The notes under the pieces were generated by a model. The model was given only the letters and a program-made list of their open reading frames with translations. It did no database searches and had not been told where the DNA came from. From a virus (Duplodnaviria; Caudoviricetes), in the IMG/VR virus record IMGVR_UViG_3300032007_000075, positions 7,587 to 71,586 of that record: a DNA stretch of 64,000 bases; one strand, given 5' to 3'. This document shows, piece by piece, positions 901-11,730 of this stretch. Positions within the stretch are counted from its first letter, which is position 1. Every line of letters starts with the position of its first letter. The position numbers and the translations under genes were made by a program.

Positions 901-1116
901 TATCTTTGCAGTGACAAAATTCCAAGTGCGGCACGAAAGATGAAGCCGCCGCAACGAGCGGCTATTTTTGTGCCCTATCATTAAGGGGAGAGTATAGACT
1001 CTCATAAATAAACGACTGCACCGCGTGGGGTAGCGGACAACGCCCCCAAAGGTATTCGCACTTGGAAGCCTTGTCAGCGCGTAGTGCAGTTTTTTAATGA
1101 CTAAAATTTCAAGTGT
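901..1116 (+). ncRNA. Promoter plus C4/CI-like structured antisense leader, copy 1
   Basis: TATCTTTG at 901; structured element 1011-1095; its segment CGCACTTGGAA (1057-1067) is complementary to TTCCAAGTGCG (920-930) and nearly so to TTTCAAGTGT (1107-1116) just before the ATG; homologous to 11526-11730. Confidence 0.7.
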
Positions 1117-1566
1117 ATGAACAAGAAAGAAAAAGAACAAAAACTCCATGAGTACGAAGAGAAGGTGCGCGGCCTGCTCGGCCACCTGCTCTACGGCTAC
1201 AAGTGCGAGTTCATGGGCGACCATCCCGTGATGCAGGTCGTCTATTTCGACTACAAAGTGTCGATCATTGTCCGTGCCGCCCTGCTGTCGGCCATCGAGC
1301 CGCTGCTCGACTGCGACTATGCCTTCGACCACGACGACGGCGAGCCGCTGATGGTGAAGAAGGAGTGGGACGATGATGACAACGAGATTGAGTCAGAGCG
1401 CCGCGAGACACCGCTCCTGGAGTGGGCTATCTCCAAACTCTACGACGTTGACCTCTCCGACAAGGTGCTGCGCTACACGGAGGCTGAACAGGACGAATGC
1501 GCCATCGGCACTCTCTGGGACAACCTGAAAGCCAGCGACGACCGGCATCTGTCGCAGAGACAATAA
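1117..1566 (+). CDS. Hypothetical acidic protein downstream of the C4-like leader
   Basis: 149-aa ORF with good start context. Confidence 0.8.
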   Translation: MNKKEKEQKLHEYEEKVRGLLGHLLYGYKCEFMGDHPVMQVVYFDYKVSIIVRAALLSAIEPLLDCDYAFDHDDGEPLMVKKEWDDDDNEIESERRETPLLEWAISKLYDVDLSDKVLRYTEAEQDECAIGTLWDNLKASDDRHLSQRQ

Positions 1567-1651
1567 TATATAAAGGTAAATAGGATGATTATCTCTCACC
1601 GCATCAGCCGCCGCAAGCGCAAACTTGAACTGATTAAAGAGGACTTGAAGA

Positions 1652-2893
1652 ATGAGATTAGTCTATAAGTTTTACATACCGCACACCGAGCAGATTGACT
1701 CCCTTTGCAGGGTGGCAAACAACCTATACAACCAGGCTCTGTATCTGTTCCGCCAGCGTCTCGATGCCGAAGGCACGTGGACGTGGTACAACGACATGGA
1801 CAAACTCATGAAGGAAGTTACCAACCTTGAAGGAACTTGCAATTACAAGCTGCTCAAATCGCAGTGTTCACAGCAGGTGCTACGGGTGCTCGACAAGAAC
1901 ATGAAGGCTTACTGCAAGTCCATTAAGGACTGGAAGAAACATCCCGAGAAATACAAGGGTATGCCGCAGATGCCGAACTACCGCAAGCGCGGCGGCATGT
2001 TCAACCTGTACTATACCAATCAGTCTGCCATCATCAGGGATGGAAAAATCAAGCTGTCAAAAGGCTTGTACGTCAGCATACCGCAGTGGGAGAAGTACGG
2101 TGATAGCATTATCAGGTTTAACCAGGTACGTCTCATCCCGAACAATCAGAACATCAAGGTTGAGATTGTCTACGAGAAGGAAGCCAAGAAAGCGGACGTT
2201 GACAAGAGCAAGTGCGCTGCCATCGACCTCGGACTTGACAACCTCGCCACAATGGTCACTGCCGAAGGCTGCGTCATCTTCAGCGGACGTTATCTCAAAT
2301 CCTATAACAACTATTTCAACAAGAACCTTGCACGCCTGCAGTCCGTCAAGGACGGGCAGGGTATGAAGCGAAGCACTAACAGAATCAAGCGTATGTACGA
2401 CAAGCGAGACCGCTACTTTGAGGACGTGTTCCACAAGGTCAGCCGCCAGATTGTTGACATGCTTGTAGAGAAGAAGATTGGCACGCTGGCTGTAGGCTAC
2501 AATGCCGGATGGAAACAGGAATCCGACATGGGCAAAAGGAACAACCAGAAGTTTGTCCAGATGCCTTTTGCGAGGCTGGCGGGCTATCTTCGCTACAAGT
2601 GCGAGATGGTGGGCATCGACTTTGTGGTGCATGAGGAAAGTTACACATCCAAGTGTGACGCGCTGGCTTTCGAGGACATTGGCAAGCATGAGAAATACGC
2701 TGGCAGACGGATAAGGCGCGGCCTGTTCCGCTCGTCAACAGGCAAACTCATCAATGCCGATCAGAATGGAGCTCTCAATATTATGAGAAAAGTAGTCGGC
2801 GATTCTTACGTCCGTAAGATAGTCGATAGCGGGCACTCGTTATGTCCTATACGATACCGCAACCCGTTCCAACGGATTGCAGGAAGTATGTAA
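1652..2893 (+). CDS. tnpB: IS200/IS605-family RNA-guided endonuclease TnpB
   Basis: N-terminal LCRVANNLYNQALY; RuvC-I AIDLGLDNLA, RuvC-II VHEESYTSK, RuvC-III INADQNGALNI; no complete Zn finger. Confidence 0.93.
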   Translation: MRLVYKFYIPHTEQIDSLCRVANNLYNQALYLFRQRLDAEGTWTWYNDMDKLMKEVTNLEGTCNYKLLKSQCSQQVLRVLDKNMKAYCKSIKDWKKHPEKYKGMPQMPNYRKRGGMFNLYYTNQSAIIRDGKIKLSKGLYVSIPQWEKYGDSIIRFNQVRLIPNNQNIKVEIVYEKEAKKADVDKSKCAAIDLGLDNLATMVTAEGCVIFSGRYLKSYNNYFNKNLARLQSVKDGQGMKRSTNRIKRMYDKRDRYFEDVFHKVSRQIVDMLVEKKIGTLAVGYNAGWKQESDMGKRNNQKFVQMPFARLAGYLRYKCEMVGIDFVVHEESYTSKCDALAFEDIGKHEKYAGRRIRRGLFRSSTGKLINADQNGALNIMRKVVGDSYVRKIVDSGHSLCPIRYRNPFQRIAGSM

Positions 2894-2934
2894 AAAGTTT
2901 AATAGAGTTTAATAACTTAAATACTTTTAATAAC
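1652..2934 (+). mobile_element. Non-autonomous tnpB-only (IS1341-like) element; right end and omegaRNA probably near 2750-2934
   Basis: No tnpA nearby; hairpins TCTTACG-TC-CGTAAGA and GCAACCCGTT-CC-AACGGATTGC near the 3' end of the gene; AT-rich tail ending TTTAATAAC. Ends not precisely defined. Confidence 0.55.
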
Positions 2935-3033
2935 GTCGCCTTGATGTCTATCTTTGTTGGTAGAAAATCGCGATTAAGCGAGAGCAGACGAAAGCCGCGC
3001 TTTCAGTATGCCGAGCGAAAGCTATTTCGACGG

Positions 3034-6000
3034 TCAGTCGCTATATCGCTTCATGAACTGGTCGGCCTGTTTGATCTTCTTGTGGAGCCCGTTCTCACCG
3101 TACATGTTGATGTTCGGCGCCACGGGGTTCTGCAGCAGGTGGGTCATGCCCTGCATCAGCGGCAGCATCTGCTGCATCGTCTGCATGAGCAACTGGTCGC
3201 GCTCGCTCTGTCCGTTGTCGGTGGTTGAGCTCGTCGAAGCATCGTCGGCGGGACGGATGGCCGAGGCGAGGTCACTCAGATTACCTTCATCAAATGCTCT
3301 CACCTTCCGAGTGGTGATGCCACGGTCTATCATGGCTAAGTCTCTGAGCAAATCAGGTCGGTTCATCTGAATGGCTCTTGTTGTCTTGCGCCCGATGACG
3401 ATTTCGGGGCCGCGCTCACCGACGAGCGCCGCCTGACCGTTTACCCGCGTCGCAATCGGCTCCGTCACCATCGACACGCCACTCGGCAGACTGCGCTGCT
3501 CACGAGCCCGATACACGCGGCCATCATCGCCGACGACCGTCTGCACGTTTCCTTCGTCATAAGTCAACATACCGCTCTTGAGTTTCACCTTCGTCTTGGC
3601 GGCGTTCTCATTGCCACCCGACTTCGAGCCACCACCGAGGGCCGAGAGGGCTGCGGAGAGGAGTCCCATCAGCAGGGCGGTGAACACGGCGATGAGCGGT
3701 GCGCCGAACGGGCCGAGCGTACCGAGCACCTTGGCGGCCATCTCTGCGATACCTGCCATCACGGTGCCTTGAGCCTTCGTGCCCTCCTGAGTCATCTCCT
3801 GCGTATCCTGCGTCTGCTTCGTGGCGAGCACCTGCTGACCCATCGTCTGGGTGATGCCGGCGATACCCTGTTCTACGACGCTCGTCATATTGAGTCGCTC
3901 CTTTCCGCTCTCCTCGTCGGTGTCGGTCATCTCGCCTTGGGTGGCCTTCTCCTCCTTCACCATCGCCTTGCCGATGAGCTTCTGTTTCAACTTCTGCATC
4001 ATCAGGTCCTTGATGATCGAGATGGTCGATTCGCCCCACGACTTTACGAGGCTCTTCAGCGCGTTCTGCATACCCTCGGCCATATTCTCACTCTCGAAGA
4101 GCGCCTTGCCCATCGCGTCGCCCACGTCGGCCCCGAACTGCTCGATGGGCTGCGTCCACTGCTCCAGCTTGGAGATGTGCTCGTTGATATGGTTCATCAG
4201 GGATTCCTGCATCGCCATCTCCGCCTCGTCAATCGCCAGCTGCCGCTCTGCCAGTTCTTCATTGAATGCCAGCAACTCGGCGCCTTCGAGTTTCTTTTGC
4301 TCATTGACCATCTTGAACATTTCAAGTTCCTCCTGCAGCTGGGCCATACGAAGCATGGATGCCTGCACTTCGGGGTCTGTCTCGATGTTCAGGAATCCAG
4401 CTCGCTCGCCGAAGTTTGTGCCTTGGTCGGCACCCGTCATCTTCTGCCGACGGCCTTCGAGGCTTATCTGACTGCTTGCATCGGCATACTCCTGTCCCTT
4501 GCCGCTGGTGTCCCACCGCTGCTGGAAGTTCTCGTTCATCTTCTGGCGGTAGTTCTTCACGGAATCGAAATACTGCTTATCGAAGTCGATGAGCGAGAGA
4601 TAGAACGCCTGAATGTCGGCCTTGTAGGTCTCGGAGTCCTTCAGCCACTTGTTGAACTCGTCCTTGAACGCCTCGGCCCAGCCGCTGAACTGGAACTCGA
4701 AGCCGTTGGCACCCATACCAGCCTGAGCACCCGTAAAGTCCATAAGCCATTTGTTCAAGTCGGCAGTGTTCTCGTAGTTGACGGTGTAGTTCTGCTGTGC
4801 CGACTGCGTGAGGAACTGTTGTCCTGCCTGTCGGCGGGCGTTGCTGCGCTCCTGGGTGAGTTGTGCCTCACTCTTGCCACCGGCCTTCAGCGAACCTGTG
4901 GCCTGACGGATGCGGTCGGCAGCCTGCTCGGCGGTCTCTGTCAGCAGTCCAAGTTGCGTCAGTCGGTCTTCGTAAGCCTTGGCAGCCTGCTCGAAGTAGT
5001 TGAACTGCAACAGCGCCTTTTCCACCTCCTTGGCGGTCTTGTTGCGCAGTTCCTGCACCTTGCGGCGGTTGCCTGCGGCATTCTTGTCGAGTCCGTCCTT
5101 GAGCGACGAGGTGGTGATGCCGTACTGCCAACCTTCTTTATCTATACGCGAGAGGTTCTGACGGATGGAGGCCATCGACACGTCCATCATCTGTTGGAAG
5201 AGTTCCTGCGACCACTCGCCCGTGTCGAACATCAGCAGCTGGATGTTCTGCTTGGTCTTTTCCCATGTCTGGGTGTCGCGTCCGCTGATGGCGAGGCGGG
5301 CATTGGCCAAAGCCTCGTTCTTGGCCATTTCGAGTTGCTGGTTCATCTGGTTGGCCTGCTCCTGCGTCCACTTCCCGTCGGCGGCGAATCCCGTCACCAC
5401 CGTTTCCTGCAGCCTGTACCACTCCTCAATCTTCGCGATGATGGCATCCGACTCCTGCTTCGCGTCCTGCAAGTCCTTGCGTATCGCCTGCTTGTGCTCC
5501 GCCTGGGCCTTCTTGGCAGCTTTCTCGGCATCCTTATCGGGTTTGAGGTTGTCGAGTTGGCCTTTGCGCTTTAACTGACCTTTGAGGGCTTCCTCCTGGA
5601 ACTTCTCCATGTCGAAGTCGCCGACCTCGTTCTTGTAGAGTTCGTCCACTTCGCGGTTCAGCCGGTTCTCGGTGTTGCGCGACGTACTATATTCGCGGAT
5701 GTTCTTACGCAGACGTTCGAGTACCGTGGCCTCGATTAGATTACCCGCCTTGTCGTAATAGGCATTACCCTTTGCTCCACGACCAAAGTCCATCGTCTTG
5801 ACCGAGCCGCCAGCAGAGCGCACCACGGAGGCCATAATGTCTTCTACGGGGAGATTGTGCCTCTGACGCAGCCATTCGGCATCGACGTTCGATCCGAGGG
5901 CCTTGGCGGTCTGACCGAACTGCATACCGGCACGCATACGGTCAATCTTGTTATTCTGATTCACCTCGTCGCGGTACTGCTCACGCTCCTCGTAGGCTTT

Positions 6001-8823
6001 CTTCTGCTTCAGCACCTTCACAACCATCGCGTAGGCTTTGGCGAGGTCGATAGCACCGTCGATTTCGATGCCGAGATAGTCGAGGTACTGCTGATAGTCA
6101 CTCTTCAGCAGGTCTTTCAGCAGTTGGTTACGCTTTTCGAGCGAATAGTTGCTGTCGTCGAGTGCCCGCTTGTAGGACTCCAACGGAGCGGCCACGGTGT
6201 CGATGGCCTCCTTCGACTTGGCGAGTTGCATATCCAGTTCGGCCTGTCGCTTCTGTGCCTTCTCGGCGGCTTCGGCGGCGGCATTCATGTGATCTATATA
6301 TAAGGATATGCCGCCGACCACGGCTGCAATACCTGCCAACACCCAGTTCGAGTTCATCACGGCTTGCAGGGTAGCGGTGGCGGTAGTGGCCGCACGGATA
6401 GACACTATCAAGGCGGCGAACGAATTGACCATCATGCGGATGCCACCGAAGATACCGAACCACGTGAGCATCTTTATCAGGAACGGCAGCATCTTAATGA
6501 GCGTGATGACTGCAGACGTGATACCCTCGATGCCGTTGTGGAAGGCTTTCATCGAACCGTCGCTCTGTGTGAGCGCCTTGCTGACCTCGTACCACTGCTC
6601 GGCGAGTTGCTTCACCATATCCACACCTTCTGGGTTGGTGAATGCCTTGGCCCAAAGATTTTGGGCACGCTCCATGAGGGCATTGGCGGTCTCGTTCTGG
6701 ATCATATACTCGTTGATGACTGCCGTACCGTCCTTGAATGACTTGGTAGATGTTTCGAGGTGTTTCTTCAGGATATCCACGCGGTCGGCCATTGTGGTCA
6801 TCACGGCCACCAGACGGGCACCGTCGGAACCGAGGTCTTTGAAGATGCCGTCGAGGGCGTTCATATTCCCCCTCTTGTTCATCGCCTCGAAGATGTCAAC
6901 AATACTCTTGATGGTCTGCCCTTTGGCGAAGTTTTCATTGATAGAACCCTGCGCCAGTCCGAGCGACTTCTCAATCATATTGTGACCTTTCTGGATAGAT
7001 GTGAAAAGTTTGTTGAAGGCCGTTGCAGCCACTTCGGGCATCAGTCCCATTGCGTCTGCAGCAGAGCCGATGGCCAGCAGTTCGTCAGCCGTGACACGCG
7101 ACACGTTGGCCAAACCCATGAGTCGTTTTGAGAACTCCACGATGTTCTTACCTGTGGCTGTAGAGGTGGTCGAAAGCATGAAGATAGCACTGGCGGCTTT
7201 CTGCATAGATTGCTCTACGCCATACTTATCCATCAGTCCCATGACCTCAGTCAGCTTGGCCAGTGCGGGCAGCGCCTCTTCGCCCAGGTCTTCGCCAAGG
7301 CTCATTTGAACCATTTCCGCCGAGCGCACAAATCCAGTCAGGGCTTCCACGCCGCCATGTTCCTGCACACCAAGTTTGGCACCAGCGTAAGCCAATTTGT
7401 TGAGTGTCTCGATAGAATTACGGGTATCAATCTTTGTGATATTTGTATAGAGTTTGTTAATCTCCTGGGACGTCAAACCGCTGACTTTTCTGATATCGGC
7501 CAAACTGTCGCTCAATTTGAGATTGGACTTATAGACCTCCATCACTTTCGACTTGATCATGTTGAAGGCACCGAACACACCGACGTAGGCGGCGATATTC
7601 TTGATGGCTGTGCCGAAAGTGCCGCCCTGCTGCTGGATAGCACCCGTATTACGACGGATCTGGGCTTCGACGGCCTTCATGTCCTGTTTCAGTTTCTGGG
7701 CGGTGGCACTCTGCGTGGAGTTCAGGCTTTGCAGTTTCTGTTGCAACTGTGTGAGTGCGTTTTGTAGTTGCGCATTAGTGGCGGTTTTCAAGAACTGCTT
7801 GTCAATCTTGATTTCGGCCTGCATGGCGGCAGTTACCTTGTCGATACGGTTTTTCAGGAGTGCCATCTGCTGAGCGGCGGCACGCGCCTTGGCATCGTTG
7901 GTACCGGCGAACTGCTGCTGGCGGGCTTGCAAGGTTCTGTAAGCGGCCTGCAACTTCTCCAACTCGACGGCCTGACCGCGATACACGGCACGGACGGTGC
8001 CCGCAGCTTCCTGCGTGGCTTGCAGTTGCTTGGCGGCTTGGTCGGCCTTTTTCTCGTTGTCGGTCAGCAGTTTCAGTTGCTCGTTGACGGCTTTCAGTCT
8101 TTGCTCGTAACCAGCCGCTTTACCCTCGTAACCCTTCACACCACTGGTGGCTGCGAGTGCCGACATCAGGGCGGTACGCTCTGCGCCAAGTTGCTGGGCG
8201 TTCATCTTCGCCACGGGCATTGCTCCAGTCGGAGCGGTGCGCACGGCCATTGCAGCCTGATATTGTGCCTGCATCTGTTCTAATGACCGACGCCACTTGT
8301 TGCCGATGTTCGGATTGTCGAGCTGTGCTTTGATGGCAGCAAGTCCCTGCTTCAGCTTATCCATCGACGTGTTGTCGAGGTTCTTCAACTGCGTCTGAGC
8401 CTGACGGAACGACATCGTAAGGCCGCTGGTGCCAGAAATCTGATCTTTGATGCGCTTGATATCATCTATCAACTTCTGACGGCCAGGCGATTTCTCGCTC
8501 ATCTTGCCAAGTGCAGTAGTGGCCTCACGAAGAGCCGTTTTCAAGTCCTTCAACTTCGAGCCTGACAGATCTTTCAGCACTTGTCCGTACTTCACCATCG
8601 ACTGCTGGTTGTGGATGATGGCCGAGTCGATAGCCGTGGCCTGTTTGGTAAGGTCGCGGAAGTCCTTCTTCATCTGCTCCGTCCAGCCGCTCTTCTCACC
8701 CTTTGCGTTCAGGTCTTTCAGCTTCTGCTTGACGTCTGCCAGCTGTCGGTTCAGGTATTCAAACACGTCCTTCACCGCCTTGGCGTTACAGGTAATGACG
8801 AGTTCAGATTTTCTTGTTGCCAT
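3034..8823 (-). CDS. Phage tail tape measure protein
   Basis: 1929 aa, helical Ala/Gln/Lys-rich; TP901-like core (LADIRKVSGLT...ETLNKLAYAGAKLG); hydrophobic segments; located in the tail module. Confidence 0.92.
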   Translation of the reverse strand: MATRKSELVITCNAKAVKDVFEYLNRQLADVKQKLKDLNAKGEKSGWTEQMKKDFRDLTKQATAIDSAIIHNQQSMVKYGQVLKDLSGSKLKDLKTALREATTALGKMSEKSPGRQKLIDDIKRIKDQISGTSGLTMSFRQAQTQLKNLDNTSMDKLKQGLAAIKAQLDNPNIGNKWRRSLEQMQAQYQAAMAVRTAPTGAMPVAKMNAQQLGAERTALMSALAATSGVKGYEGKAAGYEQRLKAVNEQLKLLTDNEKKADQAAKQLQATQEAAGTVRAVYRGQAVELEKLQAAYRTLQARQQQFAGTNDAKARAAAQQMALLKNRIDKVTAAMQAEIKIDKQFLKTATNAQLQNALTQLQQKLQSLNSTQSATAQKLKQDMKAVEAQIRRNTGAIQQQGGTFGTAIKNIAAYVGVFGAFNMIKSKVMEVYKSNLKLSDSLADIRKVSGLTSQEINKLYTNITKIDTRNSIETLNKLAYAGAKLGVQEHGGVEALTGFVRSAEMVQMSLGEDLGEEALPALAKLTEVMGLMDKYGVEQSMQKAASAIFMLSTTSTATGKNIVEFSKRLMGLANVSRVTADELLAIGSAADAMGLMPEVAATAFNKLFTSIQKGHNMIEKSLGLAQGSINENFAKGQTIKSIVDIFEAMNKRGNMNALDGIFKDLGSDGARLVAVMTTMADRVDILKKHLETSTKSFKDGTAVINEYMIQNETANALMERAQNLWAKAFTNPEGVDMVKQLAEQWYEVSKALTQSDGSMKAFHNGIEGITSAVITLIKMLPFLIKMLTWFGIFGGIRMMVNSFAALIVSIRAATTATATLQAVMNSNWVLAGIAAVVGGISLYIDHMNAAAEAAEKAQKRQAELDMQLAKSKEAIDTVAAPLESYKRALDDSNYSLEKRNQLLKDLLKSDYQQYLDYLGIEIDGAIDLAKAYAMVVKVLKQKKAYEEREQYRDEVNQNNKIDRMRAGMQFGQTAKALGSNVDAEWLRQRHNLPVEDIMASVVRSAGGSVKTMDFGRGAKGNAYYDKAGNLIEATVLERLRKNIREYSTSRNTENRLNREVDELYKNEVGDFDMEKFQEEALKGQLKRKGQLDNLKPDKDAEKAAKKAQAEHKQAIRKDLQDAKQESDAIIAKIEEWYRLQETVVTGFAADGKWTQEQANQMNQQLEMAKNEALANARLAISGRDTQTWEKTKQNIQLLMFDTGEWSQELFQQMMDVSMASIRQNLSRIDKEGWQYGITTSSLKDGLDKNAAGNRRKVQELRNKTAKEVEKALLQFNYFEQAAKAYEDRLTQLGLLTETAEQAADRIRQATGSLKAGGKSEAQLTQERSNARRQAGQQFLTQSAQQNYTVNYENTADLNKWLMDFTGAQAGMGANGFEFQFSGWAEAFKDEFNKWLKDSETYKADIQAFYLSLIDFDKQYFDSVKNYRQKMNENFQQRWDTSGKGQEYADASSQISLEGRRQKMTGADQGTNFGERAGFLNIETDPEVQASMLRMAQLQEELEMFKMVNEQKKLEGAELLAFNEELAERQLAIDEAEMAMQESLMNHINEHISKLEQWTQPIEQFGADVGDAMGKALFESENMAEGMQNALKSLVKSWGESTISIIKDLMMQKLKQKLIGKAMVKEEKATQGEMTDTDEESGKERLNMTSVVEQGIAGITQTMGQQVLATKQTQDTQEMTQEGTKAQGTVMAGIAEMAAKVLGTLGPFGAPLIAVFTALLMGLLSAALSALGGGSKSGGNENAAKTKVKLKSGMLTYDEGNVQTVVGDDGRVYRAREQRSLPSGVSMVTEPIATRVNGQAALVGERGPEIVIGRKTTRAIQMNRPDLLRDLAMIDRGITTRKVRAFDEGNLSDLASAIRPADDASTSSTTDNGQSERDQLLMQTMQQMLPLMQGMTHLLQNPVAPNINMYGENGLHKKIKQADQFMKRYSD

Positions 8824-10122: not shown

Positions 10123-11235
10123 TCAGATGTTTAGTTCGTGTTCCAGGATTTCTTCAATTCTGTTAAATTCGGTATATGGGATTTCGAGCAGGCGAATCCC
10201 CTTCTGACGACAATACTCCCTCAAGGCAGCGTCTCTGCGTTTGCGATGGAGTAGTCCATCCTCACCACCCCACGCATGTTTACCTATATCATAATGTTGT
10301 TTTCCATTATATTCAATAATAATACCATTGTCTAACTGAAAATCAACAACAAATACTTTCTTTTCATTTGGCGAAATAGGCGTATGAATAGTTTTCTGCC
10401 ATGTGTAATGGATATTATGACGGTCGAGCCAAAGCATAACAGCCGCTTCACCTCTTGACATTTTACATTTAGGACAACCTGTTTTCAAACCGATATGGTC
10501 CCAGGGATTCGTTTTAAACGGGCCATGTTTTTTGCAGATAACAATAATAGGTGTTCTGCGGTTAACGTATTTGGTCTGGGAGTAGTCGTAACGGTCTCCG
10601 TGGACTTCCCGAGCCCTTTTTACTATATCTTCGGTTGTCAGGCCCTTCCCCGCACAATATTTACACCCATAACCTTGAAGGATAAGCACAGGTTTCTGCT
10701 TGTATTCCTTACCGCAGATATTGCATTTTACGCTAACTGGCGTTAAAATATCTTTGTAAACTGACTTCTTAAAATCATAATTGTCACCGTGTATCTTCTT
10801 GGCCCTGCAAAGAAAAGTGGACTGATCCATCAACTTGTTAGTTCTGCGGCGCTCCAATCCGCACTTGGGACAGGCGTACCCTTGCAGAAAAAGTCCAGGC
10901 TTCTTCTTAAAATCTCCATGAATAGGGCAAGTTATTATTACGTCCGATTTCTCGCTCTTATAATTTGTTTTAGAGTAGTCATAAAAGTCCCCGTATTTTT
11001 TTATTGCCTTGGCAATGAAGTCCTCAGTGGTGTCGAAGGAATAGCATTTGCAACCTCCATTGCCTTTCAGGTGGTTAAGAGGAAGTATCTCGTGTACCTT
11101 TCCGCAACGATTACATTTGACTTTGACTTTCTCGGCACAAACGGTGTATCTCGTTAGAGAATAGTCGTATTTGTCACCGTGCATAGCCTTCGCTCTGCGA
11201 ATAAATTCCTCGTTGGTAATTCTGTGGTTTGGCAT
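10123..11235 (-). CDS. Putative homing-type endonuclease: four Zn-ribbon (DUF723-like) repeats plus a C-terminal PD-(D/E)XK-like domain
   Basis: Four repeats F..(R/K)A...HGD.YDYS...Y......V...C..(H/C)G......P...L.G.GC..C; C-terminal VDFQLDNGIIIEYNGKQHY; AT-rich relative to its flanks. Confidence 0.8.
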   Translation of the reverse strand: MPNHRITNEEFIRRAKAMHGDKYDYSLTRYTVCAEKVKVKCNRCGKVHEILPLNHLKGNGGCKCYSFDTTEDFIAKAIKKYGDFYDYSKTNYKSEKSDVIITCPIHGDFKKKPGLFLQGYACPKCGLERRRTNKLMDQSTFLCRAKKIHGDNYDFKKSVYKDILTPVSVKCNICGKEYKQKPVLILQGYGCKYCAGKGLTTEDIVKRAREVHGDRYDYSQTKYVNRRTPIIVICKKHGPFKTNPWDHIGLKTGCPKCKMSRGEAAVMLWLDRHNIHYTWQKTIHTPISPNEKKVFVVDFQLDNGIIIEYNGKQHYDIGKHAWGGEDGLLHRKRRDAALREYCRQKGIRLLEIPYTEFNRIEEILEHELNI

Positions 11236-11246
11236 ATCTCTTCCTT

Positions 11247-11393
11247 TTAATAACTTCTATATCTGTTGCGTGAATAATACGGCGCGTGAGCGTTTACTTT
11301 TACTACGGCCTTGCGGCGGTTGCGCGGCACGACGGCCTTAGAGAGCAGTGCCATCAGCTCCTGCATCTCGGGATCAATGTCGGAGCGGTTCAT
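11247..11393 (-). CDS. Small basic ORF (48 aa, MNRSDIDPEMQELMALL...)
   Basis: Hand-translated; its ATG overlaps the upstream TGA; lies between the C4-like leader and the endonuclease. Confidence 0.5.
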   Translation of the reverse strand: MNRSDIDPEMQELMALLSKAVVPRNRRKAVVKVNAHAPYYSRNRYRSY

Positions 11394-11524
11394 AAGGCAG
11401 CGTCGTTAGGGTTAATCACTTGCGGGGCTGTCAGGCGGCTGAGCACCCTGCGGATGGACTGGCGGCGACGGGCTATCTCCATGAAGATAGGGTAGGTCGC
11501 ACGGACATTAGTTGTTGGCTTCAT
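11390..11524 (-). CDS. Small ORF (44 aa, MKPTTNVRATYPIF...); icd/kil-like position
   Basis: ATG at 11524 immediately after the antisense target AAATCAATTCAG. Confidence 0.55.
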   Translation of the reverse strand: MKPTTNVRATYPIFMEIARRRQSIRRVLSRLTAPQVINPNDAAL

Positions 11525-11525
11525 A

Positions 11526-11730
11526 CTGAATTGATTTTTTGACAATAAATAAACGGCACTACGCGCTGTCAAGGTTCAATTCAACTGAGACCTTTGGGGA
11601 CGTTATCCGTTACCCCACGCGGTGCCGTTTGGCTTGATGTATTCCTTTCACTTACGGGCACAAAAAATGCCGCTCGTCGCGGCTCGTTACATCTTCGTGC
11701 CGCTGAATTGATTTAGACGTTGCAAAGATA
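11526..11730 (-). ncRNA. Promoter plus C4/CI-like structured antisense leader, copy 2
   Basis: TATCTTTG at 11730-11723; structured element 11630-11551 homologous to 1011-1095 with a compensatory closing stem; 12-nt target repeated at 11703-11714 and 11526-11537. Confidence 0.7.

Follow-up and report, generated by a model that had tools for sequence, protein, structure and literature searches.

A c4-2 family RNA lying between two complementary targets forms a putative antisense cassette in a gut phage genome

A short segment of phage DNA, in which a structured RNA lies between two sequences complementary to its own loop and directly ahead of a small open reading frame, raises the question of whether the arrangement is a regulatory switch of the kind described for phages P1 and P4 and, if so, what is being switched. 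The segment lies within a 64,000-nucleotide stretch (the window), which is part of a 71.6-kb IMG/VR virus record and whose sequence is contained in bovine gut metagenomes. An earlier note on this DNA had read positions 901-1116 as an antisense RNA switch made up of a promoter, a first target (a1), a hairpin, a structured RNA and a second target. The features as they are now resolved are collected in Table 1. The analysis presented here makes it probable that 901-1566 is a self-contained cassette under the control of an antisense RNA of the c4-2 family, a judgment that is made jointly with the whole of the mechanism set out below. Tape-measure and other phage genes adjoin the cassette, which is the phage context associated with Rfam c4-2. 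The cassette would belong to a rumen phage that probably infects Prevotella; 2 of the 19 matches in a scan of GTDB genomes were full-length c4-2 RNAs, both on Prevotella(ceae) MAG contigs from rumen, a mere hint of the host.

Table 1. Positions of the cassette features and of the adjoining insertion sequence in the window
Feature	Position	Strand	Source or remark
Bacteroidota-type -7 promoter box TATCTTTG	901-908	+	Box and its spacing to the first target shared by 37 of 41 relatives
Upstream target: constant box GTGACA (b1, 911-916) and variable site TTCCAAGTGCGG (a1, 920-931)	911-931	+	
Hairpin A, proposed anti-terminator: TGCGGC (927-932) / GCCGCA (948-953)	927-953	+	
Terminator-like hairpin T1: GCCGC-AACGA-GCGGC (948-962), then TATTTTT; alternative register from 944	944-969	+	Terminator scan
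Outer stem GGCAC (930-934) / GTGCC (970-974) around T1 and U-run	930-974	+	Read from sequences
c4-2 RNA, with U-run 1090-1095 at its end	1014-1095	+	Rfam RF02944
Antisense segment: variable loop TCGCACTTGGAA (a', 1056-1067) and constant box TTGTCA (b', 1071-1076)	1056-1076	+	
Downstream target: box TGAC (b2, 1098-1101) and TTTCAAGTGT (a2, 1107-1116), touching the start codon	1098-1116	+	
Putatively regulated ORF, 149 aa, C-terminal half acidic	1117-1566	+	Without known family
IS605-family TnpB-only insertion sequence; tnpB at 1652-2893; outside the switch	1607-2936	+	Pfam and metagenome contigs; ends approximate

The central RNA was assigned by cmscan to the Rfam family c4-2 (RF02944) at 1014-1093 (+), with 44.9 bits against a gathering score of 41 and a match that spans positions 1-79 of the 79-position model. 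This family shares clan CL00128 with c4, and c4-2 was also detected in the source record by a genome search. The structured RNA that had been placed at about 1011-1095 is therefore present and has a name, where the earlier note had recognised no named Bacteroidales version. The scan against c4-related Rfam families that the same note had recommended returned both copies in the window above the gathering score, the second at 11550-11629 (-) with 42.2 bits. At 1014-1093 c4-2 alone was reported, and no match of this RNA to the P1 c4 family model (RF01695) or to c4-a1b1 was returned; here, overlapping clan matches are collapsed to the best one, and a weaker c4 match could thus be hidden. The c4 clan models gave no reported match on the upstream target at E values of up to 10. 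The available text of Weinberg et al. (2017, PMC5737381) describes c4-2 as a likely distant homologue of a known RNA. Searches of the available literature found no paper on the targets or the cargo of c4-2, and none linking c4-type RNAs to Bacteroidota phages or to homing endonucleases.

The predicted fold of the window RNA is consistent with this assignment. A covariance model of our own, built from 13 members, gave the window RNA 83 bits, a score as high as those of its relatives, and 15 of the 22 base pairs carry compensatory changes in the RNAalifold analysis of 13 sequences. The single-sequence fold (-34.4 kcal/mol, z = -2.9) agrees with the fold of the 13-member alignment. It consists of an outer stem, a three-way junction, a conserved hairpin of the form GGGG-UA-GCG-loop-CGC-CCCC and a second hairpin that bears the antisense loop. 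The same three-way junction and the same conserved GGGG-UA-GCG hairpin are found in Rfam c4-2, although the window copy has the 5-nt loop GACAA where the consensus has GAAA. Judged by its sequence and predicted structure, the window RNA is a genuine member of the c4-2 family and a new copy of a known motif. The spacer between T1 and c4-2 (976-1011) contains a small hairpin, GAGAG...CTCTC, at about 986-1003, and several relatives have a hairpin of other sequence in the same spacer position; this hairpin may be a processing signal.

Two complements of the variable loop are present on the same leader. In a repeat search, the loop CGCACTTGGAA (1057-1067) was the exact complement of 920-930 (11 nt, 100%), as had been proposed for a1. 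The loop can also form 10 pairs, two of them G-U, with 1107-1116, and the ATG at 1117 follows directly after this second target, an adjacency that had likewise been pointed out. When loop and constant box are taken together, 1059-1076 is 72% complementary to 1098-1115 over 18 nt before G-U pairs are counted, and the constant boxes GTGACA (911-916) and TGAC (1098-1101) pair with TTGTCA at 1071-1076. The earlier description of the targets was thus correct as to the variable sites; it had missed the second, mostly constant box of each target and the terminator within the upstream hairpin. Duplexes with c4-2 are predicted at -26.5 kcal/mol for the upstream target and -17.2 kcal/mol for the downstream target.

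Relatives of the cassette were collected in five pattern scans, four over IMG/VR and one over GTDB genomes, and the matches were passed through the 13-member covariance model; the earlier note had suggested a search of this kind. This gave 50 matches and 45 distinct RNAs, in a sample that is biased to near kin of the window and in which several loci come from one phage lineage. Scans with relaxed motifs returned mostly chance matches, with 3 of 100 loci in one and 25 of 100 (26 matches) in another passing the covariance model. The layout is constant in the 45 distinct relatives: promoter, box and target, terminator-like hairpin, c4-2, U-run, box and target, and start codon. Their leaders begin with a -7 box TAnnTTTG, which is the Bacteroidota -7 promoter consensus, followed by four bases, a box GTCAAA, a variable site mostly ending in GCGG, and a hairpin with U-run. 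After a spacer of about 40 nt come c4-2 with its U-run, a box TGTCAAA, the variable site again and ATG. The c4-2 RNA at L207:12581 (relatives are designated by locus number) is without recognisable targets. In the 64 kb of the window, the combined pattern of promoter box and first target box, TANNTTTGNNNNGWSWAAA, is confined to the two cassettes, with one occurrence at each and 0.04 expected in all. The promoter placed ahead of a1 by the earlier note is borne out by the recurrence of its box in the relatives (Table 1), and a transcript start near 912 is predicted.

The specificity of the pairing was assessed across the relatives, for which 35 cassettes were collapsed to 30 specificity classes. 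Duplexes of an RNA with its own upstream site averaged -22.9 kcal/mol, compared with -13.5 kcal/mol for mismatched combinations, and the corresponding values for the downstream site were -18.3 and -10.9 kcal/mol. None of 20,000 permutations attained the observed mean at either site; these statistics are inflated by sequence kinship, although the loops nevertheless differ in nearly every cassette. The RNA of the same cassette was the best partner for the upstream site in 25 of the 30 classes. The constant boxes covary as well, being GACA/TGTC in most relatives, GTCA/TGAC in copy 1 of the window and AGCA/TGCT in L012. Covariation of the loop with both targets, together with the c4-clan match and the structural covariation, upholds the target-antisense-target order and the kinship with P1 c4 that had been drawn from the window alone. 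Within the window, the RNA of copy 1 pairs with its own sites at the values given above and that of copy 2 at -16.1 and -22.0 kcal/mol, compared with -10 to -7 kcal/mol for the sites of the other copy, which gives each of the two RNAs a preference of 7 to 16 kcal/mol for its own sites. Their loops differ, and no cross-reaction would be expected between the two cassettes of this phage. The occurrence of 30 classes among 35 cassettes is the pattern that would be expected of a trans-acting specificity determinant.

The leader upstream of c4-2 contains two competing pairings. Within the hairpin that had been drawn at 928-975, a terminator scan located a terminator-like stem (948-952/958-962) followed by TATTTTT, designated T1, and a stem with U-run occupies this position in 35 of the 37 leaders with a located promoter box. 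Hairpin A shares sequence with a1 in its 5' arm and with the 5' arm of T1 in its 3' arm. Before the 3' arm of T1 has been made, hairpin A is the minimum-energy fold of the nascent RNA (-9.5 kcal/mol). Its pairing is kept in relatives despite changed sequence (GGGGC/GCCCC, AGTGGC/GCCACT and TAGCGA/TCGCTG), with -10.8 kcal/mol for own pairings and -8.7 kcal/mol for cross pairings, and none of 20,000 permutations attained the own mean. The outer stem at 930-934/970-974 is also kept by paired changes in relatives (GGTAC/GTATC and GGCAA/TTGCC), as read by eye from the sequences. With the U-run added, the structure of lowest energy is T1 (-12.7 kcal/mol) even when c4-2 is not bound, and the attenuator would therefore have to act kinetically.

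These observations can be accommodated by the following model. A single promoter would drive, in order, the b1-a1 target, the attenuator, c4-2 with its own stem and U-run, the b2-a2 target and the small ORF. Once set free, the RNA of ~80 nt would use its variable loop and constant box to pair with fresh transcripts from the cassette that encodes it. Pairing at the upstream target would occupy the 5' arm of hairpin A and so prevent this hairpin, T1 would form, and transcription would halt before c4-2 and the ORF, which amounts to negative feedback. On transcripts that had read through, pairing at the downstream target would cover positions -19 to -1 of the ORF and block the initiation of translation. 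The expected outcome would be a cargo gene that is expressed at a low level, independent of gene dosage. From the complementarities and predicted folds we infer such dual control, with upstream pairing freeing the terminator and downstream pairing hiding the start codon, and likewise action in trans, processing of the RNA, control of termination, the block to translation and the purpose of the cassette. Taken as a whole, from family and fold through targets and attenuator to repression in trans, this explanation is one that we hold with reasonable confidence.

The ORF that follows the second target (1117-1566) has no Pfam family, and gave one weak PHROG match, to an entry of unknown function. 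A homologue search returned ten proteins, of which nine have 169-173 aa and one has 105 aa. The window ORF is without 21 internal residues (RAELQRLLPEVELATVKRLLS in relatives), the gap lying near nt 1272; all nine full-length homologues have these residues, as does L003 in a diverged version, and the loss is in frame, between two RA.L motifs. The first ORF of L003 is a member of this family, and that of L239 groups with it in a BLAST clustering; a search of IMG/VR with the ORF alignment found no relative. Its AlphaFold model reached a pLDDT of 66 and a pTM of 0.48, and a Foldseek search of this model against the PDB gave nothing below E = 0.01, with generic alpha/beta folds only.

The product of the tnpB gene further downstream carries the Pfam domains OrfB_IS605 and Cas12f1-like_TNB. 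Metagenome contigs match the window from 1607 to 2936 and then run into unrelated sequence on both sides; this stretch, sharply delimited in rumen metagenome contigs, occurs in many other contexts, and its summed contig depth is far above that of the cassette. By these contig matches, tnpB is part of a separate insertion sequence that landed ~40 nt behind the stop of the ORF, outside the cassette. The earlier placing of the cassette ahead of a hypothetical gene stands, and for tnpB it reduces to adjacency. The stretch 2963-3017 likewise has high depth, with loose ends on both sides, in rumen metagenome contigs. Three other cassettes (L003/L004, L006 and L239) also have a TnpB gene immediately behind them in the same orientation, possibly by chance. 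Those at L003:719-2574, at L006:1072-2598 and in L239, where c4-2 is at 4113-4196 (-) with TnpB downstream, are of another lineage with an HTH_OrfB_IS605 domain; in L003 and L006 a small HNH endonuclease gene is situated between c4-2 and tnpB, 16-18 nt before the latter.

Sequences of this type are also represented among metatranscriptomes. A sheep-gut metatranscriptome contig of 1,510 nt covers 892-1557 at about 94% identity, and other c4-2 relatives occur on bovine metatranscriptome contigs. It counts against the model that the RNA contig of a relative already starts about 30 nt ahead of the predicted transcript start. Such contigs show neither ends nor strand, and with DNA carry-over possible they lend weak support to expression.

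The genes behind the 45 cassettes are summarised in Table 2. Homing endonucleases of four kinds follow 19 of the cassettes and antirepressors follow 14. Within the loci that bear c4-2, 10 of 11 NUMOD4-HNH genes are located at most 1.3 kb downstream of the RNA, a position that corresponds to 7% of strand space. Viewed from the side of the nuclease, c4-2 was found upstream of 6 of the best 80 NUMOD4-HNH relatives, a share too small for c4-2 to be typical of these nucleases as a family. An N6/N4 DNA methylase gene (L211:1018-2088) and a PAPS-reductase-like gene (L002:3-925) are each positioned behind a c4-2 cassette, and imply that the cargo consists of accessory genes in general, beyond nucleases and antirepressors.

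Table 2. Cargo recognised among the first genes behind the 45 distinct c4-2 cassettes
Cargo	Cassettes
NUMOD4/HNH_3 homing endonuclease, after a small helical ORF often overlapping by ATGA	11/45
GIY-YIG endonuclease	3/45
Zinc-finger endonuclease with DUF559-type domain, including window copy 2	3/45
Small HNH, then TnpB	2/45
TnpB only, including window copy 1	2/45
Rha antirepressor	8/45
KilAC/ANT antirepressor	6/45
DNA methylase	1/45
PAPS-reductase-like gene	1/45
No recognised cargo (unknown)	7/45
Cargo cut off at locus end	1/45

Comparison of individual loci suggests that the parts of these cassettes are exchanged. The copy 2 cassette of the window (10123-11730, -) is 82% identical to L207:2189-4800 through promoter, leader, c4-2 and both micro-ORFs. 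The endonucleases of copy 2 and of the cassette at L207:2366 are different, one of 370 aa and the other of 667 aa with seven DUF4379 fingers, and the two cassettes have 26 identical nt in common right after the stop. The nuclease thus looks like an exchangeable module, and the modules of the cassettes appear to recombine. A cassette with c4-2 and a GIY-YIG gene (L288:4404-5832) lies beside a homologue of the window gene at 3-767, whereas L289 and L290 have, around 5975-6001, no cassette beside the homologue of this gene and only a spacer of ~25 nt; this is not a clean comparison of filled and empty sites, the far-side neighbours being not homologous to the window tape measure. The c4-2 RNA in L288 is without recognisable targets or -7 box. 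Two c4-2 cassettes each, with different loops as in the window, are found on the 5-kb contig of L002 and on the contig of L207/L288.

On this basis a broader reading can be put forward tentatively, as a possibility that we take seriously without leaning towards it. The c4-2 cassettes may be portable, "barcoded" governors that travel with selfish or accessory phage genes, the cargo in the rumen being chiefly free-standing homing endonucleases (NUMOD4/HNH_3, HNH, GIY-YIG and zinc-finger DUF559-type). Control at two levels, by attenuation and by occlusion of the start codon, would then keep the nuclease low at any genome copy number, through the cassette's own RNA only.

Explanations other than an intact repressor acting in trans were weighed against the same data. 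The matches might be repeats at the level of DNA, such as recombination or homing sites of a mobile cassette, instead of RNA partners. The two targets do form a 13-nt direct repeat (916-928/1103-1115, 92%) that flanks the RNA gene, and the cassettes look mobile, being present or absent with swapped cargo in related phages. However, the non-Watson-Crick positions of the upstream duplexes comprise 11 G-U and no A-C; tolerance of G-U together with avoidance of A-C argues for selection on pairing by the RNA of this strand and not for a DNA repeat. The repeat, moreover, always abuts the start codon and the promoter, and its partner occupies the apical loop of a hairpin that is conserved in the RNA, all of which makes this reading very improbable. 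A switch operating purely in cis has a better claim, although it too appears unlikely. Here, the loop would pair with the upstream site, leaving translation on, or, after the 5' part of the leader had been cut off or refolded, with the downstream site, turning translation off. Folding of the full precursor predicts a cis pairing between the loop and a1, which fits a cis-only switch as well: b1-a1 is paired to the loop in the minimum-energy fold of leader and c4-2, the stronger of the two sites is systematically the upstream one (-22.9 versus -18.3 kcal/mol), and all parts are on one transcript. Against this, the terminator-like stem and U-run of the RNA itself should stop many transcripts short of the second target, and P1 c4, a member of the same clan, is a trans-acting RNA (PMC8546580). 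A cis switch would, furthermore, have no need of diversified loops or of orthogonality between two cassettes in one genome, and would leave the conserved terminator directly behind a1 without a role.

The copy examined here could also be a decaying remnant, in which the RNA and its targets remain recognisable and the cassette is useless now, its cargo damaged and an IS behind it. The 21 residues missing relative to homologues of 169-173 aa, and the TnpB IS ~40 nt after the stop, do speak against intact function. Yet promoter box, both targets, hairpin A, T1 and the RNA itself are intact, the last with its 83 bits; the upstream complementarity is perfect; and the deletion, in frame and between repeated RA.L motifs, may have left a working protein. 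Decay of the cassette is accordingly regarded as improbable, and repression in trans by an intact c4-2 RNA as the preferred reading.

P1 c4 is a textbook antisense repressor, whereas its Bacteroidota counterpart c4-2 has been a database motif only. The present locus and its 45 relatives give c4-2 a testable anatomy, with binding sites, specificity bases, a likely second mode of action by way of a terminator, and cargo. By itself, the single locus adds one more member to a known family; what most deserves testing is the anatomy of dual control and the link to endonucleases. If the cassettes are indeed governors, the ORF family at 1117-1566 would be such cargo, or else the leader gene of a cargo since lost. 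If the endonuclease link is true, it would show how selfish nucleases stay harmless in gut phages, and it would supply natural orthogonal RNA repressor-target pairs for Bacteroidota, where genetic tools are few.

Three known systems bear comparison with the cassette. In T-even phages, free-standing and intron homing endonuclease genes, for example that of I-TevI, are controlled by cis hairpins that sequester the RBS and are bypassed from late promoters. The likely purpose in the c4-2 relatives is the same, a selfish nuclease kept scarce by a hidden translation start. The means differ, given the separate barcoded small RNA of the c4 clan found here, and the cargo of copy 1 is not a recognisable nuclease.

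The closest likeness is to the immI region of P1 and P7, whose RNA belongs to the same clan and whose RNA gene is situated between two target pairs on its own transcript, the downstream pair at the start of a leader ORF. The two-part a/b targets of P1/P7, upstream and downstream, are present in the window (911-931 and 1098-1116, versus a' at 1056-1067 and b' at 1071-1076), the b boxes pair with the RNA in the manner of the P1 b sites, and loop specificity differs between related phages as it does among c4-2 relatives. The P1/P7 RNA is a processed product of about 77 nt whose 5' end is made by RNase P. In P1, c4 RNA represses Ant synthesis in the c4-icd-ant operon (PMC8546580, PMC8198154) and acts in trans (PMC8546580); its precursor is, according to Hartmann et al. 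(1995) as cited in PMC4919922, a substrate of RNase P. The present locus is not a P1 immI operon, as the antirepressor is absent: where P1 and P7 have one after the leader ORF, the window has an ORF without family and then an IS-borne tnpB, although 14 of 45 relatives do have Rha or KilAC. The window also differs from P1/P7 in that its host is a member of the Bacteroidota, which are not known to make classical use of Shine-Dalgarno sequences, in that the downstream site abuts the ATG itself and in that a terminator and a competing hairpin follow the upstream target, and the cargo of the relatives is mostly homing endonucleases.

The order of target, antisense RNA and target on one leader transcript is also that of P4 CI (seqA - cI/seqB - seqC), where pairing with the leader provokes premature termination. 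P4 CI governs an entire early operon and prophage immunity, whereas the window holds a small accessory cassette within a tail-gene region. By analogy with these phages, the block at the leader ORF probably works like P1 c4, and the upstream site probably works like P4 CI.
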